A DNA stretch of 64,000 nt from Deltaproteobacteria bacterium (GCA_020845895.1 JADLEX010000078.1:801-64800), one strand, 5' to 3'. Shown: positions 926 to 47,044, counted from the stretch's first letter. Notes: generated by a model from the sequence alone, not told the origin. Made by a program: numbers and translations.

Positions 926-1008
926 CTTAGATGAATAGATTATAGCTTGGAAATTCTTAAGCGGTTAGCAAGAGGCCACCTGCGGCCACGTAATTCGAGG
1001 AGAAATCG

Positions 1009-1509: not shown

Positions 1510-1772
1510 GCCGTGAGTCGGAACTTGTCAGAGAGGGAATTCTCGACTCGGTCGGAAGGCTACGCTCGAAACGACGGTTTCAGCTTCGATATTCGCACGT
1601 CTTTCGCTGCCGCGTGACGTTGCCTGAATCCATCCGTGTCCGTATCGACGTCGTGAGCCGATGCCGCGTCCTTCAGCCGCCACTCGTCTTCGATCACGAC
1701 CGCGTCCGCGAGGCCACGAAAACGGCGAATTGCGTTGGAGATCGCGCGCTCCTCGTGTAGGATTCTTCGCCC

Positions 1773-8113: not shown

Positions 8114-8248
8114 GCATTCTCCGCGGATTCGGCCCCGCAAACGCATCGCGGTCCGCATGGATTCACGGAATGCTCGCAGTCTATCGCCGAATCCGTGGCC
8201 GCGTAAGCTGTATGGATTACAAATCCTTCGTGCGCCCGGTGCCAAACG

Positions 8249-25737: not shown

Positions 25738-26487
25738 TCAGGGCAGGCAGCTCACGTAGCTCGCGAACACGCCCGCCAGGTCGTCGGTCGTTTCGATCAG
25801 CGAGAATTCGGCGCCGAGTCCGGCGAAGCAGCTCACGGTATTCGCGACCTCGGAGAGCGACTCGCAAGCGGGGTGAGCCGATTCGCAGGCCGCCTCGTCG
25901 TCGCCGAACGCGCGGTCCATGGCGCAGTCGAGGTAGCCGGCGCAGTTCGCGCCCTCGGCCTCGGCGCGCGCCGCGAAGTCGGTTTCGGCCGCGATCACGC
26001 AGTCGAAGACCTGCTCGCCGCACGCGGCCATGCACGCGGCGGAATCGCACTCGAACGCGCAGTTCGCGCCGGCGTCGGCGCAAGCCACCGCGTCGGTGCG
26101 GATCTGGTCGAAGCTGACGAGATCGGCCATCGGCACGTCGCCGTGGATCGCCATCTCGATGTCCGAACCCCACTCATCGGCGCCGAAATCGACGTTCAGC
26201 CCGGCGAAGTCGTCGAGCAACCCGGTGCCGTCGAGCGCGTCCATCTTGCTCGCGCAGCCGCCGCATCCGTCGCAGCCGCACGCGCCGGTCGCGGGATCCT
26301 CGGAATAATCCGGGTCCTCGGTCGTGTCGTCGTCGGCCGACGTGTCATCATCGTCCATGTTTTCGAAGTCGTTCTCCTTGTTTTCGTCGTCGTCATCGTC
26401 GTCGTCGGAACAACCCCCGAGACCGATGGTGAGAGCGCCAAGAAGAGACAGGACCACCAACAGCGTCGACCACGGCCACAAGCGCAT
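25738..26487 (-). CDS. Acidic Cys-rich lipoprotein of unknown function
   Basis: Signal peptide with lipobox 'LGGC'. A poly-Asp tether (DDDDDDDENKEND...DDDD) follows, then a C-rich domain with about 20 Cys residues. Start refined to MRLWPW at 26487. Confidence 0.5.
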   Translation of the reverse strand: MRLWPWSTLLVVLSLLGALTIGLGGCSDDDDDDDENKENDFENMDDDDTSADDDTTEDPDYSEDPATGACGCDGCGGCASKMDALDGTGLLDDFAGLNVDFGADEWGSDIEMAIHGDVPMADLVSFDQIRTDAVACADAGANCAFECDSAACMAACGEQVFDCVIAAETDFAARAEAEGANCAGYLDCAMDRAFGDDEAACESAHPACESLSEVANTVSCFAGLGAEFSLIETTDDLAGVFASYVSCLP

Positions 26488-26722
26488 TCGGTTCCCCCTC
26501 GTCGATGACGCCGCGAACGGGTCGCGGCCGCAAATGTGCGGAAATTCCAGCAATTTCAAGAACTATACACAAACGCGTCGAGCGAGGGAATACGCGCGAA
26601 TGGGTCATCAAGCCGCGGACCGCTTCTTCCGATAGATGCTGAGAGGGGAACGGAATTCCCCGTCGCGGGTTATTGGGGAGCCGCGCGACGTACCGGCGGC
26701 GACGCCAGGGACGGTGCCGAAA

Positions 26723-28735
26723 ATGAAACTCAAAAGAACTTTCACAGCCCTGGCGGCGATTCTGATCCTTTCGACGACCGTTTTTCCGTCGATCGCACTC
26801 GCGCAGGACGACATCGACATCGCGGCCATCCGCGCCGCCATCCGCCGGTCGGGCGCGAACTGGAGCGCCGCCGAGAACGTGGTCACGCGCCGTGGTATGA
26901 ACTTCATGTCGGCCCTCGCGGCCGCACCGGTGCCGGTCGTTCATTCCACCGATCGCTTCTTCGAACCCAACATGAGTCTCGCCCTGCCGACCGCCATCGA
27001 CTGGCGCGCCAACGGCGGGAACTACGTGACGCCGGTGCGCGATCAGGGCTCTTGCGGAAGCTGCTGGGCGTTCGCGGCGGTGGCGGCGGTCGAAGCGCGC
27101 GACGCGGTCTTCAACGGCATCGCGAGTCCCACGACCGACCTGTCCGAGCAACAAGTGCTTTCGTGCTCCGACGCGGGGGACTGCGTCGCGGGCGGATATC
27201 TCTCCGGGGCGCTCGACTACATCCAGGAAACCGGAACGCCCGACGAGTCGTGCTTCGCGTATGCGGGCTACAAGAAGAGCTGCGCGAGCACGTGCGGCGA
27301 CTGGGCGTCGCGCACGGTCACGATCGACGACTGGTCGTGGATCACGACCACCAACTACACCGACACCACGCTCATCAAGACCGCGCTCATGGATGGCCCC
27401 GTGCCCGTCTGGTACAAGATTTACATGGATTTCTACGCCTACACGGGCGGCGTGTATCAGCACGTGTGGGGCAACTACGTCGGCAACCACTTCGTTCTGA
27501 TCGTCGGCTACAACGACGCCGAACAGGCGTGGATCGTGAAAAACAGTTGGGGCGACGACTGGGGCATGAGCGGCTACTTCAAAATCAAGTACGCCGACTC
27601 CGAGTTCGGCTCCTGGGCCGCCGCCGTGACGCCGCAGGTCGATAGCTGCGCGCTGCCCGACCTCGACTTCGTCGCGAATCCCACCTCGGGACCTCCCGGC
27701 ACGGTCGTGTATTTCACCGAAACCGGCAACAAGCCGCAGTGTACGGTGACCGCGCGCAAGTGGACGTTCGGCGACGGCACCTACACCAGCCACCACAATC
27801 CGCTGCATGTCTACAACGCGGCGGGAAATTTCACCGTGAAGTATGAAGTGACGAATTCGGCGGGAACCTTCCGCGTGGAAAAACCCGCGCTCGTCGTCAT
27901 CGAGGACGACGCCGAGTGCCATGTGAACGCCGACTGCGAAGACGGCATCGGCTGCACCGTGAACACCTGCAATTCCCAGACGCTGACCTGCGAAATCGTG
28001 AACAACTGCGGCGACCGCACGCTCTCGGCCGACTGCGCGAACAGCGCGGGGAGCGGAGAATACACGCTGCCGATCGGGATCTCCGACGGCTCGAACGTCG
28101 ATGCCTACAACTTCAATCTCGATTTCGACAACGTGAATCTCCAGTTCAAGCAGATGACGACGAACGGCACGCTGCTGGAAGGCCGGGGCGTGTTTCTCTC
28201 GTGCGGCATGGAGGGCAACGGCGACATCGGGTGCAGCGGAAATCCGTACCCCGCGCTCGAGCCGGGATCGAGCGGCGTGCTGATGAACCTCGTCTTTACG
28301 GTGCTGGCCGACGCGGGCGCGGCCGAGTTTCGCCCCTACAACATGGGCGGCGATTTCGGCGGCATGACGGGCGAATCGTGCACGGCGTCGATCCTGCTCA
28401 TCGCGGGCGATGACGACGGTGATGATGATGCGGACGATGATTTGGCTGACGATGATGTCGACGATGACGCATCGGACGACGACGCGGATGACGACACCTG
28501 GTATCCCGACGACGATGCCGATGACGACAGTACCGATGACGATGCGGCGGATGACGACGCCGAGGATGATGACGCGGCGGATGACGACGCCGGCGACGAC
28601 GACGGCCTGTGGTGGGATGACGACGACGAGCCCGACGATGACGACATGTCGCCCGACACGAACTCGGGCGGTGAAGACGACAGCGCCGTGGACGTGGACT
28701 CCGACGAACAGCAGCAGGTCGCCTGCGGCTGCTGA
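26723..28735 (+). CDS. Secreted papain-family (C1A) cysteine peptidase with a PKD domain, a beta-rich module, an acidic Asp-rich C-terminal region and a terminal ACGC
   Basis: Catalytic 'QGSCGSCWAFA' and 'NSWG...GYF'. PKD-like 'WTFGDGTYTSHHNPLHVYNAAGNFTVKYEVTN'. The C-terminus reads 'DDDGDDDADDDLADDD...DTWYPDDDADDD...QQQVACGC*'. A type I signal peptide is present. Confidence 0.8.
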   Translation: MKLKRTFTALAAILILSTTVFPSIALAQDDIDIAAIRAAIRRSGANWSAAENVVTRRGMNFMSALAAAPVPVVHSTDRFFEPNMSLALPTAIDWRANGGNYVTPVRDQGSCGSCWAFAAVAAVEARDAVFNGIASPTTDLSEQQVLSCSDAGDCVAGGYLSGALDYIQETGTPDESCFAYAGYKKSCASTCGDWASRTVTIDDWSWITTTNYTDTTLIKTALMDGPVPVWYKIYMDFYAYTGGVYQHVWGNYVGNHFVLIVGYNDAEQAWIVKNSWGDDWGMSGYFKIKYADSEFGSWAAAVTPQVDSCALPDLDFVANPTSGPPGTVVYFTETGNKPQCTVTARKWTFGDGTYTSHHNPLHVYNAAGNFTVKYEVTNSAGTFRVEKPALVVIEDDAECHVNADCEDGIGCTVNTCNSQTLTCEIVNNCGDRTLSADCANSAGSGEYTLPIGISDGSNVDAYNFNLDFDNVNLQFKQMTTNGTLLEGRGVFLSCGMEGNGDIGCSGNPYPALEPGSSGVLMNLVFTVLADAGAAEFRPYNMGGDFGGMTGESCTASILLIAGDDDGDDDADDDLADDDVDDDASDDDADDDTWYPDDDADDDSTDDDAADDDAEDDDAADDDAGDDDGLWWDDDDEPDDDDMSPDTNSGGEDDSAVDVDSDEQQQVACGC

Positions 28736-28824: not shown

Positions 28825-30567
28825 ATGCCGAAATTCGGAATTGCAGATCGAGGCGGGCCATCGCCGTCCAATCCCTCGATGTTCGACACGTCTGTCGTGA
28901 CGGGGATGATCGTCGCGGCGTATGCATTCGCCGTGCTGGCCCTCGGCACGCGGCCGGTCTTCGACAACGACATCGGCATCCACATCGGCGTGGGCCGCAC
29001 GATCTGGGAAAATCGGGCGGTCACCGGCCATGATTTTCATTCCCACACCGCGCCCGGCGCCGATTTTCTGGACCACGAATGGCTCGCGCGGCTTCTGTTC
29101 TTCGCCATCGACGGGGCGGGCGGCAACGCGGGGCTTGTCGCGTTTCAGGCGCTGACGGTGCTGATCGTTTTTGTTCTGCTGGCACGGAGCAATCGCGAGC
29201 ACGGCCTCGCGACGGCTCTCGTCCTTCTCGCCGCGGGCGTGGTGCTTTCCACACGCGTGCAGGTCCGCCCGCACGTGATCGCCTGGGTGTTGATCGCTCT
29301 TCAAATTGTTTTTCAAAAAAAAGGCAACCGCACGGCGATCGCGGCCTTGCTGGCGCTGTGGGCCAACATCCACGGCAGTTTTCTGCTCGGTGTCGCAATG
29401 GCGCTCGTCTGGTCGGCCGAGCGCTGGTGGACCTACCGCGACCGAAAATGGTTCGCATGGGCCGCGGCATTCGCGCTCGCGCCGATGGCGAATCCCTTCG
29501 GTTGGCGGATCTACGGCTTTGCCAGGCAAATCAAGGACATCAACTTTTTCGTTTCCGAGTGGCAGCCCTATTCACTCGCATCGGTTTACCCCTGGGTGAT
29601 CGCCGCGGTATTCGGGGCCATCGTCATCGACTTGATTCGACGGCGTGAGAATCTCCTGTTCGACGGCGCGAGGATCGCACTGCTCGCGGGACTGTCCTGG
29701 TCGGCCATGCGCCATGGGTCCGAAGCGATGTTGTACGCCGCGCCGATCTTTGCCGCGCGCTACGGTCCGGCGCTCGCGCGGATGCCGCGACGCGCGGGCA
29801 TCGCGAGCGCGTCGATGGTCGCTGTCGCCGCCGTGGCCGGAGGCGTCTATTTAGCCGCCGAGCGGCAGTCGTTTCGCTTCACCATCGATTCGCACGCGCT
29901 CCCAATTCGGGCGATAGATTTCATCAACCGTGAAGAGCCGACCGGTGAGATTTTCAACGATTACGATTTCGGCGGCTACCTGCTCTGGAAACTCGACCCA
30001 CGCCGAAAGGTTTTTGTCGACGGTCGGCTCGAGGTCTATGGCCCCGGCGGCCACCTTGACGAATATCTGCGCGTGTCCAATGGCGTGCCCGGTTGGCAAT
30101 CCATCCTGGACAAGTATGGCGTGAACATGTGCGTCGTTCGCGCTGACCGCCCGATTGCCAAGCAGCTTGACGAGAGAGGCGCGTGGGAGATGGTCTACTT
30201 CGATTACAACGCGGCGATTTTCCTGCGTCGCGGAGCGTCGCCCCAAATTCGTCGCATCACGAACTTCCGCCCGTGGGGCCACCGCGACAGGGACAATTTC
30301 CCGGTTCTGATCGACGAGGCGAAGTATTTGCTTGGCCAAAACCCCGAATTTTTCGGCGGCTTCAAGATGCTGGGATTCGTCCAGTATCGCTCCGGCGACT
30401 ATGCCGGCGCGCGCGACAGCATGCGCGAATACCTGCGCCTTTTTCCCGGCGGCGTGCGTTCGGAGCAAACCATGGAAATGCTCGGGAACCTTTCGGTGCG
30501 AGGGTTCGGACTCGACACCACGCACGGCAATACGGGGGGCATCATGCCCCAGTTCGACGAGCCGTGA
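28825..30567 (+). CDS. Large polytopic membrane protein with a periplasmic C-terminal domain; possible GT-C-like glycosyltransferase. Start may be the internal Met at 28879.
   Basis: About 8-10 TM helices in the N-terminal ~330 aa, then a soluble ~250-aa domain. Its stop is 2 nt from the start of the YfhO-like gene (operon). I cannot place the family with confidence. Confidence 0.45.
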   Translation: MPKFGIADRGGPSPSNPSMFDTSVVTGMIVAAYAFAVLALGTRPVFDNDIGIHIGVGRTIWENRAVTGHDFHSHTAPGADFLDHEWLARLLFFAIDGAGGNAGLVAFQALTVLIVFVLLARSNREHGLATALVLLAAGVVLSTRVQVRPHVIAWVLIALQIVFQKKGNRTAIAALLALWANIHGSFLLGVAMALVWSAERWWTYRDRKWFAWAAAFALAPMANPFGWRIYGFARQIKDINFFVSEWQPYSLASVYPWVIAAVFGAIVIDLIRRRENLLFDGARIALLAGLSWSAMRHGSEAMLYAAPIFAARYGPALARMPRRAGIASASMVAVAAVAGGVYLAAERQSFRFTIDSHALPIRAIDFINREEPTGEIFNDYDFGGYLLWKLDPRRKVFVDGRLEVYGPGGHLDEYLRVSNGVPGWQSILDKYGVNMCVVRADRPIAKQLDERGAWEMVYFDYNAAIFLRRGASPQIRRITNFRPWGHRDRDNFPVLIDEAKYLLGQNPEFFGGFKMLGFVQYRSGDYAGARDSMREYLRLFPGGVRSEQTMEMLGNLSVRGFGLDTTHGNTGGIMPQFDEP

Positions 30568-30569
30568 GA

Positions 30570-32738
30570 GTGCCGCGTCTCGGCCACGGGTTACTCGCCG
30601 CCTTGGTCATCGCAACCGCGCTGGGGGCATATGGTCAGCTTCTGACTCCGGGCCGCGTGTTGTACTCGCAGCACAGCGACCTGATGGCGCAGCACTTGGC
30701 GACCAAAACGATCCTCCATGAGTCGATCCGCTCCGGGCACGGCATCCCGGAATGGCGCGACGACCAGTTCGCGGGAAACACCGCCGCGGGCAATCCGCAG
30801 GCGATGGGTCTCTACCCCTTTCACTCGCTTTTTCTGGTGCTCGATCCCGTTCATGCCGTCGGGCTGACGTTTTTCCTCAATGTTCTTGCGTCGGCCGCGT
30901 CGTTCTTCTTGTTGGGCTGCGCTCTCGGTCTGGGGCGGGAAGCGCGTTGGTTCATGGCGGCGGCGGGACTGGTTTGGTTCAAATTGATGGCGGCGATTTA
31001 CGCGGGTTGGTTGTCCAACACGATGGTGATCGCCCTGCTGCCGGCTTTTTTCGCGGCGGTCGTTCACATGTCGCGCAGTCCGTCCATTGGGGCGGCGGTC
31101 GCGTTGGCTATTTCCGCGGCTCTTTGCGCCACCGGTGGGCACTTCCAGTATTTTTACTACGCGGTTCTGTTCGCCGCGGGATTTTTTGTCTGGAATCTGA
31201 TCCGGCCTCTGCGCTCCGGCGATCGTGCGGGACTCGCTTCGATGGTTCGCTTTTTGGCGGTCGCCCTGGTTCTTGGGTTGGGACTTTCCGCGTACGTGCT
31301 GCTTCCTTTGGCCCTCGACGCGCCGCTCCTCTCGCGCACGACGCCTTCGTACGAGTTTTTTCTCGCCGACCACGCGTTCACGCCTCGCTCGCTCCTGAGT
31401 TTTCTCACTCCCGCGGCTCTGCGGAACGCTGTCGGCGCGCGGGGCGTGGAGTTCTGGGAAGACGTCGGCTATTTCGGCGTCGTTCCTTTGCTGCTCGCCG
31501 CGTTCGCGATCATTCGTGGACGTCGAAACCCGCAAGTCGTCGCGTTTGCCCTGGCGCTGGCGATGACGATCCTGCTGACCGTTGATTCGCCGCTGCTGCG
31601 TTTCTGCTTCGATTACGTTCCGGGCTACGCACTGTTTCGCTCGCCCAACCGAATGTTGTTTCTCACGAGCGTTTTCGGAATCGGCCTTGCGGGGATCGGC
31701 CTGCAGGCCCTGCTGGAAATCGTCGAGAGCCACGGCTTGCAAAAGACCGTGTCGGCCATCGCCATTGCGTTGATCATCATCGTCGGAGGCGAAGGCGTCT
31801 ATCGCGCGCGGAATCTCCTGACGACGGCGCCGATCGACGAGGTCTGGCCCGCGCCGTCCGCGAACGAGTTTCCGGCCCCCGGCAACGCGCGTGAGCGAGT
31901 GCTCATCGCCGGAAGATCGACGATGAACTATGGACGGCTCGCGGCACTGGGACTGCCCTCGGTGAACGGCTACGACCCGTACAACTACACGCACATTTGG
32001 CGTTACCTCGATCTCATGACGCGAGGCCACGTGTCGGACGTCGGCGTCCGCGTATGGGGCGACACCCGCGGCATTGTTCGATGGGATCTGGCCGACGCCC
32101 TGGGAGTCGGGTGGATCGTCACGCCGGAGCCGATCGGGGATCTTCCGCCGTGGCTGGAACTCGTTTCGGAAATTCCCGACGCACCCAACTTTGTTTTTTA
32201 CAAAGGCATGGAGCGCGCGAGGCGATACGTTTATCGCAATACGAACGCGCGACCTCGCGCGTTTTGGGCGCGGCGCGCGATCAGCGCCGATCCCGAACAC
32301 CCCGCCCATCACCTTGCGGAACAGGCCGACTTGAGATCCACCGCCATCGTCGAAGGGTGGGGGTTTTCCGCCGTCAATTTCCAGGGGGCGGACGACGTGG
32401 TGACCGTTGTCGAATCGCGCACCGGCGTGCTGGCCCTCGAAACGATCAGCGCGCAAAAAAGCTTCCTGGTGATGAGCGAGATCTGGCATCCCGGTTGGCG
32501 GCTGACCGTGGACGGCGCTCCCGCGGAACTTTTTCGCACCGATATCGCGCTCATGGGAGCGTGGATCGATCCGGGCCACCACCGCATGGAGTTGCGCTTC
32601 CATCAACCGCTTCGGCAAGCGGGGATCGGGCTGAGCCTGATCAGCGCGGCGGCCATTTTCTGTAATTTCCTCTGGAGATTTCGTCGTCATCGGTGGACGG
32701 AATGTTCGCATGACCGCAGGTATTTGCCGAATACGTGA
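30570..32738 (+). CDS. YfhO-family membrane protein (GT-C-like, ~720 aa)
   Basis: Multi-TM N-terminal region followed by a C-terminal beta domain containing 'SEIWHPGWRLTVDGAPAELFRTDIALMGAWIDPGHHRMELRFH'. This resembles the conserved 'yy-PGW-ka-vDG' C-terminus of YfhO proteins. GTG start at 30570. Confidence 0.6.
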   Translation: MPRLGHGLLAALVIATALGAYGQLLTPGRVLYSQHSDLMAQHLATKTILHESIRSGHGIPEWRDDQFAGNTAAGNPQAMGLYPFHSLFLVLDPVHAVGLTFFLNVLASAASFFLLGCALGLGREARWFMAAAGLVWFKLMAAIYAGWLSNTMVIALLPAFFAAVVHMSRSPSIGAAVALAISAALCATGGHFQYFYYAVLFAAGFFVWNLIRPLRSGDRAGLASMVRFLAVALVLGLGLSAYVLLPLALDAPLLSRTTPSYEFFLADHAFTPRSLLSFLTPAALRNAVGARGVEFWEDVGYFGVVPLLLAAFAIIRGRRNPQVVAFALALAMTILLTVDSPLLRFCFDYVPGYALFRSPNRMLFLTSVFGIGLAGIGLQALLEIVESHGLQKTVSAIAIALIIIVGGEGVYRARNLLTTAPIDEVWPAPSANEFPAPGNARERVLIAGRSTMNYGRLAALGLPSVNGYDPYNYTHIWRYLDLMTRGHVSDVGVRVWGDTRGIVRWDLADALGVGWIVTPEPIGDLPPWLELVSEIPDAPNFVFYKGMERARRYVYRNTNARPRAFWARRAISADPEHPAHHLAEQADLRSTAIVEGWGFSAVNFQGADDVVTVVESRTGVLALETISAQKSFLVMSEIWHPGWRLTVDGAPAELFRTDIALMGAWIDPGHHRMELRFHQPLRQAGIGLSLISAAAIFCNFLWRFRRHRWTECSHDRRYLPNT

Positions 32739-32912
32739 GTCCCCTTACGAGTGTTTTCTCGTACCACTGGTTACAAATACAACACTGGGATTTTTCGATG
32801 CTCGCTCACGACGATGCTCCCGTCGCGTCCGCGCCCTGCAGGCGCCGGAAGCCGGGAGATCGACCGGATCGTGGCGGACAAATGGATGGACCGTCTTCCG
32901 TTGAGGGATCAA

Positions 32913-35162
32913 ATGCGTTCATGGCTTTTTTGCGTTGTGGTGTCGGCGTTTCTCGCATCCCTGATCGCCTGCGGCGAGCCGGGAGATGAAACGGCTTCGG
33001 AGCCGGTTTCCGAAACGTCTGATCTCGCGACCGGCCATTGGGCATCCGAGGTACAGTCCCGCATCCGCGTCGAGGACTACCGGCTTCAACCGGGTGACGG
33101 CGCGTTCACGGGACGTAATCCCGCCCAGCGCTTTACCATCGAAATGGATGCCGGCGGCGTCATGCTCTCCGTGACCGCGCATGACACCGACCAGGACTGG
33201 GCGTGGTCCACCGTGGGCTTTGGCCGCGAGGGATTGGTCCTCGACGCGGCACCCGCCTCTCCCGCCTTGGGGGAGTGCGCGTTGCCTCCCGAATACGGCT
33301 TCGGCGACGTTTGCCTGTCGTTGATCGAGTACGACCGCGGAGAATTGGTGGAGTGGTACGCGAACCGCGTGGGCGGCCTGGAGCAGGGCTTCGAGGTCTT
33401 CGGCGAGCCGACCGGGAATGGACTTCTCGTCATCGAGGGTCGGGTTTCAACGGCGCTTACGGGTCGAGGAAACGCGGATCTCTCCGAGATTCTTTTCGCG
33501 GATGAAACAGGCGACGTGCTGCGTTACGCGGGCCTGGCGGTGTGGGACGCCAACGGCGTTCCGCTCGATTCCTGGATGGAATGGACGGATCCGGACACGA
33601 TCCGCCTGATCGTGGATGATGCGGGCGCACTCTACCCGATCACGGTCGATCCCGGCCTGTCCGCCGCACCGGACTGGCTTTATGAAGGCAACCCAGACTA
33701 CGCCTACTTCGGTCATTCCGTCTCCGGCGCGGGGGATGTGAACAACGACGGCTACGACGACGTGATCGTCGGAGCGTACAGGTACGACAATGGTCAGAAC
33801 GGTGAGGGCCGAGCCTACACATTCCTCGGATCGGTCTCGGGGTTGCAGTCGTCTCCGGTCTGGACCTATGAGAGCGACCAGGCCTACGCTTCTTTTGGCT
33901 GGTCCGTTTCCGGCGCGGGGGACGTGAACAACGACGGCTACGATGACGTCATGGTCGGAGCACCTGACTACGACAACGGCCAGGTCGGAGAGGGACGTGC
34001 CTACGCCTTCTTGGGGTCGGGTTCGGGCTTGCAGTCCTCGCCGGTCTGGACCTATCAGAGCGGCCAGTCTGAGGCCCGATTCGGCTTTTCTGTTTCCGGC
34101 GCGGGGGACGTGAACGGCGACGGAAGTGCCGACGTGATCGTCGGAGCAGATAGACATAGCAATGACCAACTCGGGGAGGGCAGTGCCTTCGTCTTCCTGG
34201 GATCGGGCTCGGGAATTCAGTCGTCGCCTGCTTGGACCTACGAGAGCAATCAGGCCTATGCCTATTTTGGCGGTTCCGTTTCCGGCGCGGGGGATATCAA
34301 TGCGGACGGCTACGACGACGTGATTGTGGGTGCGTATTCGTATGAAAACGGCCAAGGCGCTGAGGGCCGTGCCTACGCCTTTTTAGGGTCGGGGTCGGGG
34401 TTGCAGTCGTCTCCGGTCTGGACTCATGAGAGCAATCAGGCCTACGCCCATTTCGGCTTTTCCGTTTCCGGCGCGGGCGACGTGAACAACGACGGCTACG
34501 ACGACGTGATCGTCGGAGCGCATTGGTATGACAACGGCCAGGACAACGAGGGCCGTGCCTACGCCTTCTTGGGGTCGGGCTCGGGTTTGCAGTCCCCGCC
34601 AGTCTGGACTTATGAGAGCGATCAGACCAACGCCGATTTCGGCTGGTCCGTTTCCGGCGCGGGAGATGTGAACAACGATGGCTATGACGACGTGATCCTC
34701 GATGCCCAAGCTTACGGAAACGGCCAGAATGGAGAGGGCCGCGCCTATGTCTTCTTGGGTTCGGACTCTGGGGTAGAATCGTCGCCAGTCTGGACGGCCG
34801 AGAGCGATCAGGCGAACGCCCGGTTTGGCAGTTCCGTTTCCGGCGCGGGGGACGTGAACGGCGACGGAAGTGCCGACGTGATCGTCGGCGCATATCGGTT
34901 CTCCATTGGCCAAAGCAATGAAGGCCGTGCTTACGTGTTTCACGGCGAAGCGCCAACCACCACAACCACGACCACAACGACCACAACTACCACGACGACG
35001 GAAACGACGACATCCACGACAACCACCACATCGACGACCTCAACGACGGCTTCGTCGACCACCACAACAGTTCCGACGACGACAGGGTCCTCGACCACGA
35101 CGACGACGTCCGGCGGCGGTGGCGGAGATGACGATGACGACGGTGGCTGCTGCGGCTGCTGA
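32913..35162 (+). CDS. FG-GAP (integrin-alpha-like beta-propeller) repeat lipoprotein with a ~45-residue poly-Thr/Ser tract and a terminal 'GGCCGC'
   Basis: Lipobox 'LIACG'. There are 8 or more FG-GAP repeats ('SVSGAGDVNNDGYDDVIVGA...GEGRAY'). The C-terminus reads 'TTTTTTTTTTTTTTETTTSTTTTTSTTSTTASSTTTTVPTTTGSSTTTTTSGGGGGDDDDDGGCCGC*'. Confidence 0.75.
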   Translation: MRSWLFCVVVSAFLASLIACGEPGDETASEPVSETSDLATGHWASEVQSRIRVEDYRLQPGDGAFTGRNPAQRFTIEMDAGGVMLSVTAHDTDQDWAWSTVGFGREGLVLDAAPASPALGECALPPEYGFGDVCLSLIEYDRGELVEWYANRVGGLEQGFEVFGEPTGNGLLVIEGRVSTALTGRGNADLSEILFADETGDVLRYAGLAVWDANGVPLDSWMEWTDPDTIRLIVDDAGALYPITVDPGLSAAPDWLYEGNPDYAYFGHSVSGAGDVNNDGYDDVIVGAYRYDNGQNGEGRAYTFLGSVSGLQSSPVWTYESDQAYASFGWSVSGAGDVNNDGYDDVMVGAPDYDNGQVGEGRAYAFLGSGSGLQSSPVWTYQSGQSEARFGFSVSGAGDVNGDGSADVIVGADRHSNDQLGEGSAFVFLGSGSGIQSSPAWTYESNQAYAYFGGSVSGAGDINADGYDDVIVGAYSYENGQGAEGRAYAFLGSGSGLQSSPVWTHESNQAYAHFGFSVSGAGDVNNDGYDDVIVGAHWYDNGQDNEGRAYAFLGSGSGLQSPPVWTYESDQTNADFGWSVSGAGDVNNDGYDDVILDAQAYGNGQNGEGRAYVFLGSDSGVESSPVWTAESDQANARFGSSVSGAGDVNGDGSADVIVGAYRFSIGQSNEGRAYVFHGEAPTTTTTTTTTTTTTTTETTTSTTTTTSTTSTTASSTTTTVPTTTGSSTTTTTSGGGGGDDDDDGGCCGC

Positions 35163-35189
35163 AGAAGATTCCCGATTCCGAACAAAAAA

Positions 35190-35208
35190 GCCCGGCTCGC
35201 CGCCGGGG
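35190..35208 (+). terminator. GC hairpin GCCCGGC-tcgcc-GCCGGGG after the first FG-GAP gene (weak; no T-tract)
   Basis: The same hairpin core as the terminators at 28764 and 40201, but it lacks the U-tail. Confidence 0.25.
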
Positions 35209-35493
35209 CCGGTCGTCGCGCTGCTGCTCGGTAACCGACGGACCTTCCTCCTCGGGGAGAGGGCCGGAGAGCGTCTTGAACCGTTCCAAGGTGCCTGCGC
35301 TCTCAAAAGGCGCATTTTCGTGAAATCCATTACGGGACATATTACGTAACCGTTAGTACAGTGTGTTCACGCAAAATGTAATCCCGTTGCGACTCGGCCG
35401 CGAAAAACGGGTCTGCCCCCGCGAATCGCAAGAGCGCCGACTGGTGGCGCCAGTGTGGGTTTCGGTCCTGGAATCGGATCTTTGGAGGGAAAC

Positions 35494-37887
35494 ATGCGCC
35501 TTGGGACGATCGTATTGGTGATTCTTGCGGCTCTCGGCTCGTTGCTCTCCTGCGTTGGGTCCGATGGTGAGACGCGTTCGGAGCCGGCTTCCAATACGTC
35601 GGAACTCGCGGGCGGACATTGGTCCTCCGAGGTGCAATCCCGCATCCGCGTCGAGGAATACCGGCTTCAACCGGATGATGGCGCGTTCGCGGGACGCAAT
35701 CCCGCCCAGCGTTTCTCAATCGAGATGGATGCTGACGGTGTTTCCCTCGCGTTGACCGTGCATGACACCGACCACGACTGGACCTGGTCCACCGTGGGAT
35801 TCGGTCGCGAGGGATCGGTCCTCGACGCGGCGTCGGCTTCTCCCGCCCCGGGGGACTGCGCGTTGCCGCCCGAATACGGCTTCGGCGACGTTTGCCTGTC
35901 GCAGATCGAGTACGACCGCGGCGAATTGGTGGAGTGGTACGCGAACCGGATGGGCGGGCTGGAGCAGGGCTTCGAGGTCTTCGGCGAGCCGACCGGGAAT
36001 GGACTTCTCGTGATCGAGGGTCGGGTTTCCACGACGCTCGCCGGTCGGGGGAACGCCGATCTCTCCGAGATCCTTTTCGCGGATGAAACAGGCGATGTGC
36101 TGCGTTACTCGGGTCTTTCCGTTCGGGACGCCAACGGCGTTCCGCTGGATAGCTGGATGGAGTGGGTCGAGCCCGACACGATCCGCCTGATCGTGGATGA
36201 CGCGGGCGCCCTGTACCCCATTACGGTGGACCCTGGCCTGTCCGACGCACCGGACTGGATCTTCGAAAGCAACCAGGAGGGCGCCTTTTTCGGCTTGTCC
36301 GTTTCCGGCGCGGGGGACGTGAACGACGACGGCTACGACGACGTGATCGTGGGAGCACATTGGTATACCAACGGACAAATTGGAGAGGGCCGCGCCTATG
36401 TCTTCTTGGGATCGGACTCGGGAGTACAGTCCTCGCCGGTCTGGACCTACGAGAGCGACCTGCCTGAAGCTAGATTTGGCAGTTCGGTTTCCGGCGCGGG
36501 GGATGTTAACAACGATGGCTACGACGACGTGATAGTTGGTGCTCATGGATTCAACAACGTCGATGAGTTCGAAGGACGGGCTTACGCTTTTTTGGGTTCT
36601 GGATCCGGCCCACAAAACTCTCCGGTGTGGATTGAAGAACCTCATGCGCAGACTTGGTTCGGTGTTAGTGTTTCTGGTGCGGGAGATGTCAACGGAGACG
36701 GAAATGACGATGTTATTGTCGGAGCATCTCATGCATCCAATGGACATAACCGAGAAGGCAGAGCCTACGTTTATTTAGGCACAGATTCCGGAATTCAATA
36801 TTCACCCGTATGGACAGCTGAAGGCAGTCAAACGAAAGGCTATTTTGGCAATCCTGTGTCAGGCGCGGGCGATGTGAATAACGACGGCTACGATGACGTG
36901 CTCGTGGGACAGCCTTACTTTTCCAATGGACAGAACTATGAGGGACGAGCCTACGTATACTTGGGAACCAGTTCTGGATTGCAGTCGTCTCCGATATGGA
37001 TATACGAAGGACAACAAGATAATGCCATCTTGGGAGGGTCGGTTTCAGATGCCGGTGACATTAATGGCGACGGATATGACGACGTGGTCATCGGAGCGCA
37101 AGTGTATGACAACGGCCAGAACAATGAGGGCCGTGCCTTCGTCTTCTTGGGATCGATCTCGGGAGGTCAGTCCTCTCCGGTCTGGACCCAGGAGAGTAAC
37201 CAGGTCCGTGCCTACTTCGGCGATTCCGTTTCCGGCGCTGGAGACGTGAACAACGACGGCTACGACGACGTGGTTATCGGAGCTTATGGTTATGCGAACG
37301 GCCAGAACCATGAAGGTCGTGCTTACGTCTTTTTGGGAACGGATTCGGGGTTGCAGTCGTCGCCGGTCTGGACCCATGAGAGCAACTGGGCCGAGTCCTA
37401 TTTCAGCAGTTCGCTTTCCGGCGCGGGAGACGTGAACAACGACGGCTACGACGACGTGATCGTCGGAGCGTACAAGTATGACAACGACCAGAACAACGAA
37501 GGCCGTGCCTGCGTGTTTCATGGGGAGATGCCGACCACCACCACTACCACCACCACCAGCTCCTCCACGACAACAACAACGACGACGACAACGACGACGA
37601 CGACGACAACGACAACAACAACGACCGCGACTTCATCTTCGACGACCTCCTCGACGGCATCCTCGTCGACCACCACAACCGTTACGACGACGACAGGTTC
37701 ATCGACGACTACGACGACAGCCGGTAGCGACGACGACACCGGCGACGACGATGCGGGCGATGACGACACGGGTGATGACGACCCCCCCGATGAAGACCCG
37801 AGAGGCGACCCCATTGACCCGATAGACAGGGAAAAAGGGGGGGATTCGGACGACGACGACGACCGTGGAAGCGGATGTAGCGTTTAG
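35494..37887 (+). CDS. FG-GAP repeat lipoprotein, tandem paralog of 32913..35162, with poly-Thr/Ser and Asp-rich tail ending 'RGSGCSV'
   Basis: Lipobox 'LLSCVG'. The first ~700 nt are ~90% identical to the preceding gene. There are multiple FG-GAP repeats. The tail 'TTTTTTTTSSSTTTTTTTTTTTTTTTTTTTTATSSS...DDDTGDDDAGDDDTGDDDPPDED' follows. Confidence 0.75.
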   Translation: MRLGTIVLVILAALGSLLSCVGSDGETRSEPASNTSELAGGHWSSEVQSRIRVEEYRLQPDDGAFAGRNPAQRFSIEMDADGVSLALTVHDTDHDWTWSTVGFGREGSVLDAASASPAPGDCALPPEYGFGDVCLSQIEYDRGELVEWYANRMGGLEQGFEVFGEPTGNGLLVIEGRVSTTLAGRGNADLSEILFADETGDVLRYSGLSVRDANGVPLDSWMEWVEPDTIRLIVDDAGALYPITVDPGLSDAPDWIFESNQEGAFFGLSVSGAGDVNDDGYDDVIVGAHWYTNGQIGEGRAYVFLGSDSGVQSSPVWTYESDLPEARFGSSVSGAGDVNNDGYDDVIVGAHGFNNVDEFEGRAYAFLGSGSGPQNSPVWIEEPHAQTWFGVSVSGAGDVNGDGNDDVIVGASHASNGHNREGRAYVYLGTDSGIQYSPVWTAEGSQTKGYFGNPVSGAGDVNNDGYDDVLVGQPYFSNGQNYEGRAYVYLGTSSGLQSSPIWIYEGQQDNAILGGSVSDAGDINGDGYDDVVIGAQVYDNGQNNEGRAFVFLGSISGGQSSPVWTQESNQVRAYFGDSVSGAGDVNNDGYDDVVIGAYGYANGQNHEGRAYVFLGTDSGLQSSPVWTHESNWAESYFSSSLSGAGDVNNDGYDDVIVGAYKYDNDQNNEGRACVFHGEMPTTTTTTTTSSSTTTTTTTTTTTTTTTTTTTTATSSSTTSSTASSSTTTTVTTTTGSSTTTTTAGSDDDTGDDDAGDDDTGDDDPPDEDPRGDPIDPIDREKGGDSDDDDDRGSGCSV

Positions 37888-37931
37888 GAACAACGCCCGT
37901 CGGCACACTTTCCTCAATAAGGGAGAACGTC

Positions 37932-40169
37932 ATGGTGAGCCGAATGATGCAGGGTTTGCGATCACTGATCTTCTTTGCTTTGTTGGGCTTTTACGGAGCG
38001 TTCGCTCTCGCGCAAGGCGGCAAAAGCGTCTTGGCATCGGAAGAATCGAAAGGAGGGGGTTTGGTCGCCGTGCTGCCCCACGGGCGTCCCGGCACTCCTT
38101 GTGCCGTGGATGGACAATGCAACGACGGCGTGGCATGCACGACGGACAATTGCGCCGGTGCAACCAACGCCACGGACACGGTGGGCGGAATGGTTTTCGA
38201 CTTCTCCGGCCAAGAGCTTCTTCGCGGCAACATCTATGAATGCTCTTCCAACGCCGTGCTCCAAGATGTCCAAATGTATCTGAGCCTATCGGCGGCAGCG
38301 GAAGTCATGGCCGTGGTCTACGAGGCCGATGCGGCGACCGGGCCGTTCACCCTGATCGATCAGGCAGCGGCAACCCTGCCGAACAGCGGCGTCAGTTGGT
38401 ACACGATTCCCGGCCTGGAAACCCACCTGACCGCAGGCAAGTATTACGCCATCGCGTTCACTTGGGACGTGCCGACGGTCGGCTATTACCGAAGTTCACT
38501 GCCCGACGCATCGGTGTATTTCGGCACAACGGCAGGCTACGTTGCGGATGAATATTTGCCGGATGATCCCGGCGATTACCATAGCGGGTATATCTATTAC
38601 CAGCGCGTGGTCGGCACGTTGGTCGACGGCCAGTGCGAAAACACGGCGGATGCGGGATATTGCAACGATGGCGTTGAATGCACCGACGACGTGTGCACCG
38701 ACGACAGCAATGTGGTCGGCAACTCGGGCTATGAATTTAGTGGGACAACACGCGCTCGCGGTAACCTCTACCTGGCCGACACGGCGGAACACCTGCTGGG
38801 TGTGCGAGCCTACTTGGGTATGACGTCGAACTCTCAAGTGACTGCGGTCGTTTATTCGGCGGACGTCATCGGGGGGCCCTACACGCTGTTGGATTCCCAT
38901 ACGACCACTCTCACAGCGGGGGGAACGAAGTGGTACAGCGTGTTCGGCTTGGATGTCACCTTTACTCCCGGCACCTACTATGCGATCGGGCTGACTTGGA
39001 ACACCCCCGACTTGCTTTACTCTTTCGGCGACTACTGCTTGACTTCCGTGCCCGTTTCCTTCGGTGACGCCGTTGGCAACTTTTCGCCGAACTTGTATCT
39101 ACCGTCTCCACTGAACTCCTCACTCGCGCCGAACGATTGCCACTACTTCCAGGAGGCCGTGACCGAAGAACTGACCACCGGATGCGCGCACGAGCTGAAC
39201 GACGTTTGTGACGACTCCGTCGGCTGCACCGAAGACACCTGTGACGATGTGGTCGAGGATACGTTGGGAGGGACAGCAATTGCAGAGAGCGGTTCTCCGA
39301 GAATGCGAGGAAATGTTTTTGAGGCCACGTCCAACGCGGTCCTGGAATCGATCTCGATGCAGCTGGATTTCTCGATGCACTTGGCGATCAACGACTCCCA
39401 TGCCGTGACGGCCGTGGTTTACGAGGCTGCGGCGATCACCGGACCCTATACGTTGATCGATTCGCAGACGGCGGTCTTGGCTGGGCCGGGAATAGAGGAT
39501 TATACGGTGGATGGGCTGGTCACTCCATTGACCGACGGGAAGTTTTACGCCATCGGGTTCACTTGGGATGGCCCATCATTGACATGGTATGCTGAAAATA
39601 CCGGGAGCCAAACGGTTTCTTTCGGCGTCTCTAATGCCCATGTCGAGTGGACGGGTTATCTTCCCGACGATCCGTCCGGCGGAATAGTTCAAGACAGCCT
39701 GCGTTACCAGATGAGTCTGGTGACCGCGGGCGACGGATGCTCCAACACTCCTGACGACAATCTCTGCGACGACGGCCTCTGGTGCAACGGTGCGGAGACC
39801 TGTGATACGGTGAACGACTGCGAAACGGGCGCCGATGCCTGCGCCGACAACGGTCTGTACTGCGATGGGACGGAAAGCTGTAACGAGACCGACGACATCT
39901 GCGAAGCTTCGGGCGATCCCTGCGATACCGGCACGGAAGAATGCAACGAAACCGACGACCAGTGTGATCCCTTGTCCGACGACGACGCGACTGACGACGA
40001 TGCGACCGACGACGATGCGACCGACGACGATGCCTCGGATGACGATGCGACCGACGACGATGCCTCGGATGACGACGCGACTGACGACGACACGACCACC
40101 GATGACGATGACGTTTCCGGCGGCAGCGGCGGTGACGATGACGACGGAGGCGGTTGCGGCTGCGGCTGA
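37932..40169 (+). CDS. Secreted protein with three ~150-aa internal repeats separated by Cys-rich modules, plus a C-terminal Cys-rich region, a (DDDA[T/S])n tail and a terminal 'GGGCGCG'
   Basis: Signal peptide 'LRSLIFFALLGFYGAFALAQG'. The repeat core is 'G-N-x-Y-E-x-SNAVL...VTAVVYEA...TGPYTLID...GKYYAIGFTWD'. Cys-rich modules 'CNDGVxCTxDxC' and 'DGLWCNGAETCD/DGLYCDGTESCN' resemble Myxococcus cysteine-rich repeats. Confidence 0.6.
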   Translation: MVSRMMQGLRSLIFFALLGFYGAFALAQGGKSVLASEESKGGGLVAVLPHGRPGTPCAVDGQCNDGVACTTDNCAGATNATDTVGGMVFDFSGQELLRGNIYECSSNAVLQDVQMYLSLSAAAEVMAVVYEADAATGPFTLIDQAAATLPNSGVSWYTIPGLETHLTAGKYYAIAFTWDVPTVGYYRSSLPDASVYFGTTAGYVADEYLPDDPGDYHSGYIYYQRVVGTLVDGQCENTADAGYCNDGVECTDDVCTDDSNVVGNSGYEFSGTTRARGNLYLADTAEHLLGVRAYLGMTSNSQVTAVVYSADVIGGPYTLLDSHTTTLTAGGTKWYSVFGLDVTFTPGTYYAIGLTWNTPDLLYSFGDYCLTSVPVSFGDAVGNFSPNLYLPSPLNSSLAPNDCHYFQEAVTEELTTGCAHELNDVCDDSVGCTEDTCDDVVEDTLGGTAIAESGSPRMRGNVFEATSNAVLESISMQLDFSMHLAINDSHAVTAVVYEAAAITGPYTLIDSQTAVLAGPGIEDYTVDGLVTPLTDGKFYAIGFTWDGPSLTWYAENTGSQTVSFGVSNAHVEWTGYLPDDPSGGIVQDSLRYQMSLVTAGDGCSNTPDDNLCDDGLWCNGAETCDTVNDCETGADACADNGLYCDGTESCNETDDICEASGDPCDTGTEECNETDDQCDPLSDDDATDDDATDDDATDDDASDDDATDDDASDDDATDDDTTTDDDDVSGGSGGDDDDGGGCGCG
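39978..40110 (+). repeat. Tandem 12-nt coding repeat (GACGACGATGCGACC-like) encoding (DDDA[T/S])x~10
   Basis: Near-perfect 12-nt periodicity seen directly in the sequence, at the 3' end of the 37932..40169 gene. Confidence 0.7.
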
Positions 40170-40243: not shown

Positions 40244-41818
40244 TTACTGGTCCTTCGTCACGTATCCGTAGGCCGAAGCGAGCCAGTAGGCGACGAGATA
40301 GTCGACGCCCGGGTTGACGTCGCGGATGTTCTCGACCGCGCCGCACTCGATCGCCCACGGATTGCGCTGCCACAGAAAGTCCGTGGCGCACTGATAGAAC
40401 ACCGGGTAGGCATCGAGCGCCTGATAGTCGACGCCGCCGAAGACCTCTTCCAGGAACGGATACTGCACCTGCAGGTCGTGCAGGATCACGGAAATCGGAT
40501 CGAGCGGCGCGTCGGGCGGATCGACGGCATAGCGGTAGTTCGGTGCGGGGCGGAAGTCCTCCAGATCCTCGGTCATCTGCGCGAGCTGGTCGTCCCAGTA
40601 GTCGGACGTATCATCGAGCTGCGACTGGGCCATGTGGATCTGCGTGTAGAACGCGTTGTGCGACAGGTCGATGTGGTAGTGCACCTGCGTGGTGAAGACC
40701 TCGCGGATGAACTCGTTGATGTCGCAATCGGGGCGCGAGAGACGCAGCAGGTTGAACGCGTTCTGGTGCGCGAGGTTCAGCCCGTAGTGCTGCGCGTAGC
40801 GGTTCATGATCGAGATGTTCATGAGCCGGTAGAAGAGCTGATTTTCGGGCAGCGCCCACTTCTCGTAGATCTCGCGATACGTCGCGTCGCCCGTGATGTT
40901 CCAGCCGATGAGCGACCACGCCTGTTGCTGCGTGGGCAGCACGTTGGGCCCCGCGGTGGTGGGGATGTCGTCCACGTCGGTAATCCACCAGTCGGTGTCG
41001 ATGAGTTCGTCGAGTACCTCGGCCACGTCGGATTCGATCTGCGCGCGCATCGTCTCGTCGTCAACGAGATCGTACGCCAGCGACATGCCGAAGAACCAGC
41101 CGGTGTACTGGTCGCGGCTGGTGTTGCCGATCCAAAAATCGCCGTCGAATTCTCCCGAATCGACGCAGTGCCAGTTCTCGTCATTCACGCAGTTCGCCGC
41201 TACATCGCCGTAAGTGGGGTCTGACTGCGGGCCGACGTAGCGCGCGATGAATCCCGGCCGCCCCGTCACGTGCAGATGGCGCGAAAGCGACGACGCGGCC
41301 TTGATGGCGTTCGCCTTGGCCTGCGCGTCGCCGGTGACGTGGTAACGCAGCGCCTGCGACGCGAGATAGGTCCCCGTCCAGATGCACGAATCGCCGAGGT
41401 CAAAATACCACTCAGCCTCGTCGCGGTCGTCCGACGTAAACACGACGCCGACGGTCGATCCGTAGTTGGGCTGATGCCACGCCTCGTGCCACGAATCGTA
41501 TGCCTCGGCTTTTTCGCGCAGCGGCCCGCCCGTGGGCGACTCGTCGTAGGTCGAGCCGATCAGCACATCCTCGTCGCAAATCTCGGTGTCGTCGTCTCCA
41601 GTGTCGTCGTCCGCCGAATCGTCGTCGGGCAGCGGCGGCCATGTGTCGTCGTCGCCCGCGTCGTCGTCCGTCGCGTCATCATCCGTCGCGTCGTCGTCGG
41701 CCGTGTCGTCATCGACCGGAGCGCCACTGTCGTTGTCATCGTCGTCGCCCCCGCAGCCGGCGAGGAAGAGCATCGCGACAAGAATCAAAGTCCACCATGT
41801 CCCACGCATCATCTTCAC
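40244..41818 (-). CDS. Lipoprotein of unknown function with an N-terminal poly-Asp tether containing the 'DDDTWPPLPDDD' cassette
   Basis: Lipobox 'LAGCG' is followed immediately by 'GDDDDNDSGAPVDDDTADDDATDDDATDDDAGDDDTWPPLPDDDSADDDTGDDD'. The globular domain is ~430 aa and I recognise no family. Confidence 0.55.
   Translation of the reverse strand: MKMMRGTWWTLILVAMLFLAGCGGDDDDNDSGAPVDDDTADDDATDDDATDDDAGDDDTWPPLPDDDSADDDTGDDDTEICDEDVLIGSTYDESPTGGPLREKAEAYDSWHEAWHQPNYGSTVGVVFTSDDRDEAEWYFDLGDSCIWTGTYLASQALRYHVTGDAQAKANAIKAASSLSRHLHVTGRPGFIARYVGPQSDPTYGDVAANCVNDENWHCVDSGEFDGDFWIGNTSRDQYTGWFFGMSLAYDLVDDETMRAQIESDVAEVLDELIDTDWWITDVDDIPTTAGPNVLPTQQQAWSLIGWNITGDATYREIYEKWALPENQLFYRLMNISIMNRYAQHYGLNLAHQNAFNLLRLSRPDCDINEFIREVFTTQVHYHIDLSHNAFYTQIHMAQSQLDDTSDYWDDQLAQMTEDLEDFRPAPNYRYAVDPPDAPLDPISVILHDLQVQYPFLEEVFGGVDYQALDAYPVFYQCATDFLWQRNPWAIECGAVENIRDVNPGVDYLVAYWLASAYGYVTKDQ
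41620..41668. repeat. Dispersed ~49-bp near-identical coding cassette (encodes DDDAGDDDTWPPLPDDD), copy 1 of 3
   Basis: CGTCGTCGGGCA[GC/GA/AC]GGCGGCCA[T/C]GTGTCGTCGTCGCCCGCGTCGTCGTC recurs at ~41620, ~44044 and ~46566. Confidence 0.7.
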
Positions 41819-44245: not shown

Positions 44246-44249
44246 CCCG

Positions 44250-46778: not shown

Positions 46779-46966
46779 GCGGGGGAATCTAGCACAAGCG
46801 AGCGCGGCGCTCACCCCCGTCCGCGCGGTCGAAGCCGAGAGAGGGGACCGCAACCGGGAACCAACAACCAACAACCTCCGCACGCGTTTGACGCGCGGGG
46901 CATGGGGCGCTAATAAGGCGGCTCGCGCCGGTCGCCCGGTTTGTCGGATGATTGTGCGACTCGTTT

Positions 46967-47040
46967 GGGGTTGTAGCTCAGCCGGATAGAGCACCAGGCT
47001 TCGAACCTGGGTGTCGGGGGTTCGAATCCCTCCAGCCCCG
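46967..47040 (+). tRNA. tRNA-Arg, anticodon TCG (UCG); no encoded CCA
   Basis: Cloverleaf by eye: acceptor GGGGTTG/CAGCCCC, D-arm GCTC..GAGC, anticodon stem CCAGG/CCTGG with loop CTTCGAA, T-arm GGGGG-TTCGAAT-CCCTC, discriminator G. Confidence 0.85.
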
Positions 47041-47044
47041 TTCC

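Follow-up and report, generated by a model that had tools for sequence, protein, structure and literature searches.

A candidate protein O-glycosylation locus with two coupled GT-C membrane proteins and poly-threonine lipoproteins in a deltaproteobacterial metagenome-assembled genome

The DNA analysed here is a stretch of 64,000 nucleotides (GCA_020845895.1 JADLEX010000078.1:801-64800; below, the window) in which two overlapping genes for predicted membrane proteins of the GT-C glycosyltransferase fold, ORF1 and ORF2 (ORF, open reading frame), are followed by the genes for two lipoproteins, FG1 and FG2, with C-terminal tracts made almost entirely of threonine and serine. The window derives from a 69,449-bp contig of a metagenome-assembled genome that NCBI lists as "Deltaproteobacteria bacterium", with the locus tags IT350_10570 and IT350_10575. 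The GC content of the window is ∼64%, and true genes have a GC content at the third codon position (GC3) of 0.75-0.9. The features of the locus are as follows.

28825-30567, plus strand: ORF1, a polytopic membrane protein of predicted GT-C fold, 580 amino acids (AlphaFold2 model, Foldseek)
30564-32738, plus strand: ORF2, a YfhO-family protein and predicted GT-C glycosyltransferase, 724 amino acids (PF09586, AlphaFold2 model, Foldseek)
32913-35162, plus strand: FG1, a lipoprotein with a seven-repeat FG-GAP propeller (translation, Pfam)
34956-35111, plus strand: Thr/Ser tract of FG1, 52 residues, of which 39 are Thr and 8 Ser (tract statistics)
35191-35207, strand not assigned: a GC-rich hairpin directly 3' of the FG1 stop codon
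35494-37887, plus strand: FG2, an FG-GAP lipoprotein and paralogue of FG1 (translation, Pfam)
37534-37719, plus strand: Thr/Ser tract of FG2, 62 residues, of which 45 are Thr and 13 Ser (tract statistics)
37932-40169, plus strand: ORF5, a secreted protein (translation)

GC3 is 0.67-0.77 in ORF1, ORF2, FG1, FG2 and ORF5 and 0.84-0.86 in the genes of both flanks. This lower value relative to both flanks suggests that the block from ORF1 to ORF5 (28825-40169) is one compositional unit of five genes.

A coupled pair of GT-C membrane proteins

ORF2 matched the Pfam YfhO model PF09586 with a score of 48.9 bits (cutoff 28.5) and an E-value of 4.5e-13, in an alignment covering only positions 187-383 of the 835 positions of the model. 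Its sequence is the same as that of NCBI protein IT350_10575, whose precomputed Pfam entry also names PF09586. The AlphaFold2 model of ORF2, with a predicted local distance difference test score (pLDDT) of 84.5, has a polytopic N-terminal part, a C-terminal β-domain and a last transmembrane (TM) helix. Its best Foldseek matches were AftD, ArnT, STT3 and PglB. The first outer loop contains two aspartate residues, D39 and D67, that vary little or not at all, and a C-terminal region with the sequence SEIWHPGW weakly resembles the C terminus of PgfM1. On the basis of the profile match and the model, ORF2 is assigned as a true member of the YfhO family with a predicted GT-C architecture. Within that family it belongs to a diderm subfamily.

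ORF1 matched no family in Pfam or NCBIfam. The start annotated by NCBI lies 18 codons later (alternative start 28879), giving a protein of 562 amino acids. An AlphaFold2 model of ORF1 based on 31 homologues was confident, with a mean pLDDT of 91.4 and a predicted template modelling score (pTM) of 0.89. The top Foldseek matches of this model in the PDB were all GT-C enzymes, namely yeast and human STT3 of the oligosaccharyltransferase (OST), DPY19, AglB and PglB, followed by AftB, with E-values of 6e-6 to 2e-2 and TM-scores of about 0.45-0.53. The alignments to STT3, PglB, AglB and DPY19 span the membrane and C-terminal domains, with identities of 9-14%; a WWDYG-type motif was not noticed, although no search was aimed at one. 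The likeness of ORF1 to DPY19 and the OST-type enzymes STT3, PglB and AglB is at the level of the fold only.

In GT-C enzymes, acidic residues just past the first TM helix mark the catalytic place. The ORF1 family has the consensus DxDxxWHL right behind TM helix 1 (D47 and D49 in ORF1), with D49 conserved in at least 90% of sequences, and Trp-179, His-183, Arg-296, Gly-383 and Asp-399 are invariant in the family alignment. The last 220 residues of ORF1 are modeled as a periplasmic α/β domain plus TPR-like helices. The model places ORF1 in the GT-C fold. Neither ORF1 nor ORF2 matched the Pfam models for PMT, PMT_2, MIR or DUF2723, and Pmt structures rank low in the Foldseek lists of both proteins. 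A profile search showed the ORF1 family to be very large, with 46,944 clusters at 50% identity at E ≤ 1e-3 and 23,494 at E ≤ 1e-30. In further genomes, too, genes of the family stand among GT-C genes (PMT_2, GT87).

The GTG start codon of ORF2 (30564), which agrees with the NCBI annotation, overlaps the TGA stop codon of ORF1 (30565-30567) in the sequence GTGA. The same overlap is kept in four related loci (L001, L061, L062 and L108, introduced below). A preliminary description of this DNA, made from its sequence, had proposed that a large polytopic protein and a YfhO-family protein are translationally coupled here, and the GT-C models for both proteins, the PF09586 score above threshold and the GTGA overlap bear this out. 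Indeed, the identification of ORF1 and ORF2 as two translationally coupled GT-C enzymes of the inner membrane, as predicted from sequence and models, is solid.

Poly-threonine tails and related loci

The ORF of FG1 spans 32751-35162, and the likely start codon at 32913 gives a protein beginning MRSWLF with the lipobox LIAC. FG2 is 71% identical to FG1 and has the lipobox LLSC. In each protein the FG-GAP model PF01839 is matched in seven stretches (E-value 1.3e-51 for FG1). The two genes are separated by a non-coding gap of 330 nucleotides with the hairpin at its 5' end, and FG2 falls beyond position 35162, at which the preliminary description ended. That description had nevertheless reported two poly-Thr/Ser lipoproteins directly downstream of the pair. 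Both are real, and their tracts measure 52 and 62 residues rather than the ∼45 given at the time.

Thr and Ser account for 47 of the 52 residues in the FG1 tract, which has the motif SSTTTTVPTTTGSSTTTTTSG inside it, and for 58 of the 62 residues in the FG2 tract. Both tracts are therefore at least 90% Thr/Ser, compared with a background of 13% for the two residues together, and both lie behind lipoprotein signal peptides. The poly-Thr tails of FG1 and FG2 are accordingly predicted to be extracytoplasmic. In FG1 the poly-Thr tail is followed by GGGGGDDDDD and the terminal sequence GGCCGC, and in FG2 by an Asp-rich tract and the terminal sequence GSGCSV. The Thr codons are mixed (ACC, ACA and ACG) in both tracts. 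Given this mixture and the low background, the tracts are the product neither of chance nor of recent slippage and are maintained at the protein level; the mixed codons indicate that the present Thr tracts are old and under selection. At the DNA level, (ACG)n encodes Thr, (GAC)n Asp and (CGA)n Arg, which is one repeat in three frames. Poly-Thr stands beside poly-Asp at 34956-35140 and 37534-37790, and a frameshift could interconvert the two.

ORF5 starts 45 nucleotides past FG2 and has a GC3 of 0.70, resembling the genes from ORF1 to FG2 and not the flanks. The protein has three copies of a domain of ∼150-200 residues between Cys-rich CxDGxxCTxDxC modules, and its DDDxDDD tail ends in GGGCGCG without a poly-Thr tract. 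No match to ORF5 was found in Pfam or NCBIfam. A homology search with FG1 was dominated by generic FG-GAP proteins, and none of the top 120 homologues, which were examined, has a poly-Thr or poly-Asp tract.

The YfhO subfamily of ORF2 was found at 80 metagenome and 34 genome loci, mostly at 35-44% identity and at 23% in the weakest case. The genome loci were retrieved by a profile scan built on a six-sequence alignment. The phyla and groups covered are NC10/Methylomirabilota, Phycisphaerae, Planctomycetaceae, Verrucomicrobiia, Elusimicrobia, Myxococcota, Acidobacteria and Geobacteraceae. The closest relative is L001, a Logan contig of 7.5 kb, in which the overlapped pair is retained with 67% identity for ORF1 and 63% for the YfhO protein. 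The pair in L001 is followed, after 140 nucleotides, by the gene for a lipoprotein with a passenger unlike FG-GAP or ORF5. (Kinship of this passenger domain with ORF5 was considered and rejected, as there is no detectable similarity.) The lipoprotein carries a poly-Thr tract of ∼100 residues ending SGSTTTTTVTTTTGGSTTTTTGGGDDDADDD, plus an Asp-rich tail. Nearly the same tail motif occurs in FG1 (SSTTTTVPTTTGSSTTTTTSGGGGGDDDDD) and FG2 (SSSTTTTVTTTTGSSTTTTTAGSDDD), and S[SG]STTTT(T)V[PT]TTTG[SG]STTTTT is common to all three proteins. Since the L001 passenger is unrelated and the Thr motif is the same, it is the tail and not the passenger domain that is conserved beside the pair.

Just upstream of the pair in L001 is a divergent gene (188-2089, minus strand) for a PMT_2 + TPR protein of TMTC-like architecture. 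The corresponding upstream position in the window is taken by a C1 protease gene.

No YfhO or poly-Thr neighbor accompanies the remoter ORF1 homologues (56% and 40% identity). The 56% homologue, on L002, is followed by genes for a MauG-like peroxidase and a B12-radical-SAM protein. Around the YfhO subfamily, 13 of the 41 loci whose flanks reach 2 kb or more to either side have an ORF1-family gene immediately next to the YfhO gene and on its strand. Other recurrent neighbors are PMT_2/TPR GT-C proteins, a fusion of a family 2 glycosyltransferase (GT2) with a methyltransferase (beside the YfhO gene in 14 related loci), a TPR membrane protein and an ABC-2 transporter. This conserved cluster is exemplified by the NC10 loci L101, L102 and L106. 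Across all fetched loci (1.29 Mb), no poly-Thr, poly-Asp or genuine Ser/Thr-rich ORF was found besides the L001 gene.

Candidate acceptors of the GT-C pair

The reading that we favor, tentatively and as possible rather than probable, is that the ORF1-ORF2 pair O-glycosylates the poly-Thr tails of FG1 and FG2. For this we infer a lipid-linked donor, a periplasmic site of action and a protein acceptor. Specifically, ORF1 and ORF2 would each use a sugar carried on polyprenyl phosphate, as other GT-C enzymes do, and transfer would occur on the periplasmic face via the acidic residues of the first outer loop (D47/D49 in ORF1 and D39/D67 in ORF2). FG1 and FG2 would be exported by Sec, after which their Thr tails would be O-glycosylated to give a stiff, protease-resistant stalk. 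The lipid-sugar synthase would have to be encoded outside the window. Such a system would be the equivalent, in a diderm, of GtrB/PgtC2 and Pgf in streptococci.

In those systems the targets of the YfhO-family proteins PgtC2 and PgfM1 are membrane-associated proteins, a lipoprotein among them, which become O-glycosylated in disordered, Ser/Thr-rich regions at their C termini; in S. mutans the substrates Cnm, CnaB and CbpA are encoded within the pgf cluster itself (PMC12041528). The locus in the window is similar in that a YfhO GT-C protein accompanies putative substrates with extracytoplasmic C-terminal Ser/Thr-rich tails, lipoproteins included. Nevertheless, there are clear differences. ORF2 scores only 21 bits against the PgfM1 model (cutoff 1400); there is no PgfS/GtrB-type GT2 gene (in the 64-kb window) or epimerase gene near ORF1-ORF2; and the partner of ORF2 is a second GT-C protein of an unrelated family without a Pfam model. 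Furthermore, the FG1 and FG2 tails are near-pure poly-Thr and then Asp-rich and Cys-terminal, and the host belongs to an uncultured diderm lineage. By analogy, the module would work like Pgf and GtrB/PgtC2, yet it is no member of either.

The YfhO family is also involved in CsbB/GtcA/YfhO teichoic acid glycosylation, with which the locus shares the Pfam family, the GT-C fold and a presumed polyprenyl-phosphate sugar donor. There, however, the acceptor is lipoteichoic or wall teichoic acid, and no CsbB or GtcA gene is present in the window. Teichoic acids are wall polymers of Gram-positive bacteria and are not expected in this organism.

A protein acceptor is favored because the proven acceptors of YfhO enzymes are either teichoic acids or Ser/Thr-rich tails, because L001 keeps a poly-Thr-tailed gene downstream of the pair despite the replaced passenger, and because the lower GC3 is common to ORF1 to ORF5. 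It is also favored because ORF1, with its TPR-like domain, resembles the protein-modifying enzymes STT3, DPY19 and PglB. Much of the O-glycosylation module put forward in the preliminary description is thus retained (the GT-C folds, the YfhO assignment and the extracytoplasmic tails, now joined by the streptococcal precedent), but its wider linkage, the choice of mannose and the trimming step are not.

Several observations weigh against a protein acceptor. Linkage of GT-C and poly-Thr genes in other genomes, the lack of which was named in the preliminary description as a refutation, is seen in the window and L001 but not in the 113 other loci (∼1.2 Mb), none of which has a Ser/Thr-rich or poly-Asp protein within 10 kb of the YfhO gene. 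L001 is too closely related for its synteny to count as independent evidence. The pair is ancient and found in many phyla and the tails are lineage-specific, which implies that the ancestral acceptor was something else or was encoded elsewhere. AftD and ArnT, the top structural matches of ORF2, act on polysaccharide and lipid. No gene for a GT2 lipid-sugar synthase or a GtrA-type flippase is present in the window, and a gap of ∼175 nucleotides lies between ORF2 and FG1, so that these two genes may or may not be co-transcribed. Finally, DDDxDDD tracts occur in nine secreted proteins of the window (Asp 9-15%, Lys + Arg 2-6%; the cytoplasmic proteins are ordinary), and where acidic linkers abound in this way a low-complexity tail beside the GT-C pair is less surprising.

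The structural matches of ORF2 and the abundance of acidic linkers also support the strongest alternative, which we regard as a serious possibility without thinking it probable: that the pair acts on, or assembles, an envelope glycoconjugate that is not a protein (a lipid, lipopolysaccharide, exopolysaccharide or periplasmic glycan) and that its adjacency to poly-Thr genes is coincidental. The neighbors of the pair in other phyla are GT-C, GT2-methyltransferase, TPR and ABC-2 proteins and never a Ser/Thr-rich protein, and the Bacillus and Listeria YfhO enzymes act on teichoic acid polymers (PMC5836110). Against this alternative, besides the L001 tail and the common GC3 signature, is the absence from the window of genes for polysaccharide synthesis (Wzx, Wzy, polymerases or sugar-nucleotide enzymes). 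The TPR domains of the partner GT-C proteins suit protein acceptors at least equally well.

The tail might instead be mainly a C-terminal anchoring or sorting module independent of the GT-C proteins, with the Thr tract unglycosylated or served by other enzymes. We consider this unlikely, although the ends of the proteins give it some basis. Four secreted proteins of the window with differing passengers terminate in an Asp-rich tract, a Gly/Cys motif and then the stop codon: the C1 protease (tail 28670-28735, end VACGC), FG1 (35112-35162, GGCCGC), FG2 (37720-37887, GSGCSV) and ORF5 (39960-40169, GGGCGCG). FG1, FG2 and the L001 protein share their tail motif, and the corresponding place in FG-GAP homologues elsewhere is taken by exchangeable C-terminal sorting tails of the MYXO-CTERM (RVGCGC, TM helix and RRR), PEP-CTERM-like or FlgD-Ig/type IX secretion system (T9SS) type. 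The generic motif of MYXO-CTERM is GCGC, the Cys of which has been proposed to be lipidated (PMC11980579).

The window proteins are like MYXO-CTERM (TIGR03901)/myxosortase substrates, which include Myxococcota FG-GAP homologues, in the Gly/Cys signature at the C-terminal end. Unlike them, they end with the Cys motif, lacking the TM helix and the Arg cluster that would come next; no NCBIfam sorting-signal model, TIGR03901 included, was matched, and the window has no CPBP protease gene. A TM helix hidden beyond the stop codon (read-through of FG1, FG2 and ORF5) or in the other two frames (FG1) was sought and rejected, none being found. As two of the four Cys-ended proteins are without poly-Thr, the poly-Thr tract is separable from the Cys end. 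A sorting function is in any case compatible with glycosylation and does not exclude it. A comparable arrangement is known from the haloarchaeal S-layer glycoprotein, an acidic surface protein in which a Thr-rich O-glycosylated spacer stands right before the PGF-CTERM lipid anchor. That protein is, however, archaeal, its TM-helix anchor is cleaved by an archaeosortase and the enzymes are unrelated.

A more far-reaching proposal, which we think rather improbable, would combine these elements. The poly-Thr stalk, Asp-rich tract and Gly/Cys end without a TM helix would form a new surface-display module of this lineage, its stalk glycosylated in the periplasm by the GT-C pair and its Cys lipidated or cross-linked without sortase-type cleavage, and the widespread cluster of YfhO, ORF1-family, PMT_2-TPR, GT2-methyltransferase and ABC-2 genes would amount to a protein-glycosylation system of uncultured diderm phyla that has yet to be characterised.

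The preliminary description had likened the pair to PMT (GT39) enzymes and had chosen mannose as the sugar, citing a GT39-like gene at 3233-4930 and a GH92 α-mannosidase as the trimming enzyme. The PMT enzymes of eukaryotes and actinobacteria and the TMTC and TMEM260 O-mannosyltransferases do share with the pair the GT-C fold, and their acceptors are Ser/Thr-rich or domain-specific proteins; TMTC and TMEM260 join a GT-C membrane domain to TPR, as do ORF1 and the PMT_2 + TPR neighbors in related loci. The analogy is nonetheless without basis, because no gene of the window attains the PMT or PMT_2 threshold. Given the failed domain tests, the module is not, as judged from sequence, a PMT/GT39 system. 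The gene at 3233-4930 scores 18.3 bits against PMT_2 (cutoff 26.1; E-value 0.003) and has no PMT/GT39 match. Its product has an N-terminal 'PLWNDEA' loop and is likely a GT-C protein; the gene itself lies between B12-radical-SAM genes, unlinked to the module. A paralogous relationship between this protein and ORF1 was rejected (BLASTP E-value 0.25). The GH92 gene is real (E-value 3.6e-156), but its operon runs convergently on the minus strand, and it is judged not to be part of the module. No related locus has a GH92 homologue, and GH92 never co-occurs with the GT-C pair. Nothing points to mannose as the sugar, and the known YfhO protein systems move Glc or GalNAc/HexNAc (PMC12041528). PMT/GT39-like O-mannosylation of the poly-Thr proteins with GH92 trimming is therefore highly improbable, notwithstanding the GH92 gene 7 kb away, the probable GT-C protein with its 'WNDEA' loop and the PMT_2 + TPR genes beside the pair in relatives, L001 included.

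Protein glycosylation by YfhO-type enzymes is known only from streptococci. If the favored reading, O-glycosylation of the FG1 and FG2 tails by the pair, is true, glycosylation of Ser/Thr-rich disordered regions is not confined to the Firmicutes, and it becomes possible to test what class of acceptor a widespread multi-GT-C cluster serves. The locus would offer a concrete enzyme-substrate pair that can be tested by heterologous expression. It also draws attention to a GT-C family of ∼47,000 clusters without a Pfam model that recurrently pairs with YfhO in NC10, Planctomycetota, Verrucomicrobiota, Elusimicrobiota and Myxococcota. If the reading is not true, what remains is an ordinary pair of GT-C enzymes for envelope glycans beside lineage-specific low-complexity lipoproteins.

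Surrounding genes of the window

The genes around the ORF1-ORF5 block that bear on the above are as follows.

25738-26559, minus strand: Asp-rich, Cys-rich lipoprotein
26636-28735, plus strand: secreted papain-type (C1) protease with a PKD domain, a long DDDxDDD tail and the end VACGC (family search)
40244-41818, minus strand: lipoprotein without known function, in the convergent operon with GH92
41822-44296, minus strand: GH92 lipoprotein (Pfam, E-value 3.6e-156)
44250-47048, minus strand: ceramidase-like lipoprotein, 932 amino acids, in the convergent operon with GH92
3233-4930, minus strand: PMT_2-like membrane protein, a probable GT-C (sub-threshold PMT_2), the 'GT39-like' gene of the preliminary description

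The remainder of the window contains housekeeping genes, among them those for ATP synthase, ParAB, isocitrate dehydrogenase and acetyl-CoA synthetase.

All but the last of the proteins listed, together with the product of 1009-1509, are strongly acidic secreted proteins or lipoproteins with DDDxDDD. The DDDxDDD linkers often stand directly behind the lipobox Cys, and the motif DDDAGDDDTWPPLPDD is common to three of the minus-strand lipoproteins. Salt-in halophily as the source of the Asp richness was rejected, the cytoplasmic proteins being of ordinary composition. From the sequences, Asp richness is a trait specific to the exoproteome.

The ceramidase-like lipoprotein has weak matches to neutral/alkaline ceramidase domains (E-value 6e-12 for the N-terminal domain), and its presence in one operon with GH92 is unusual in bacteria. 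Three B12-binding radical-SAM genes (1773-3218, plus strand; 5022-6773, minus strand; 6467-8245, minus strand) surround the PMT_2-like gene at 3233-4930. GC3 is lower (0.66-0.67) in this gene and in 5022-6773.

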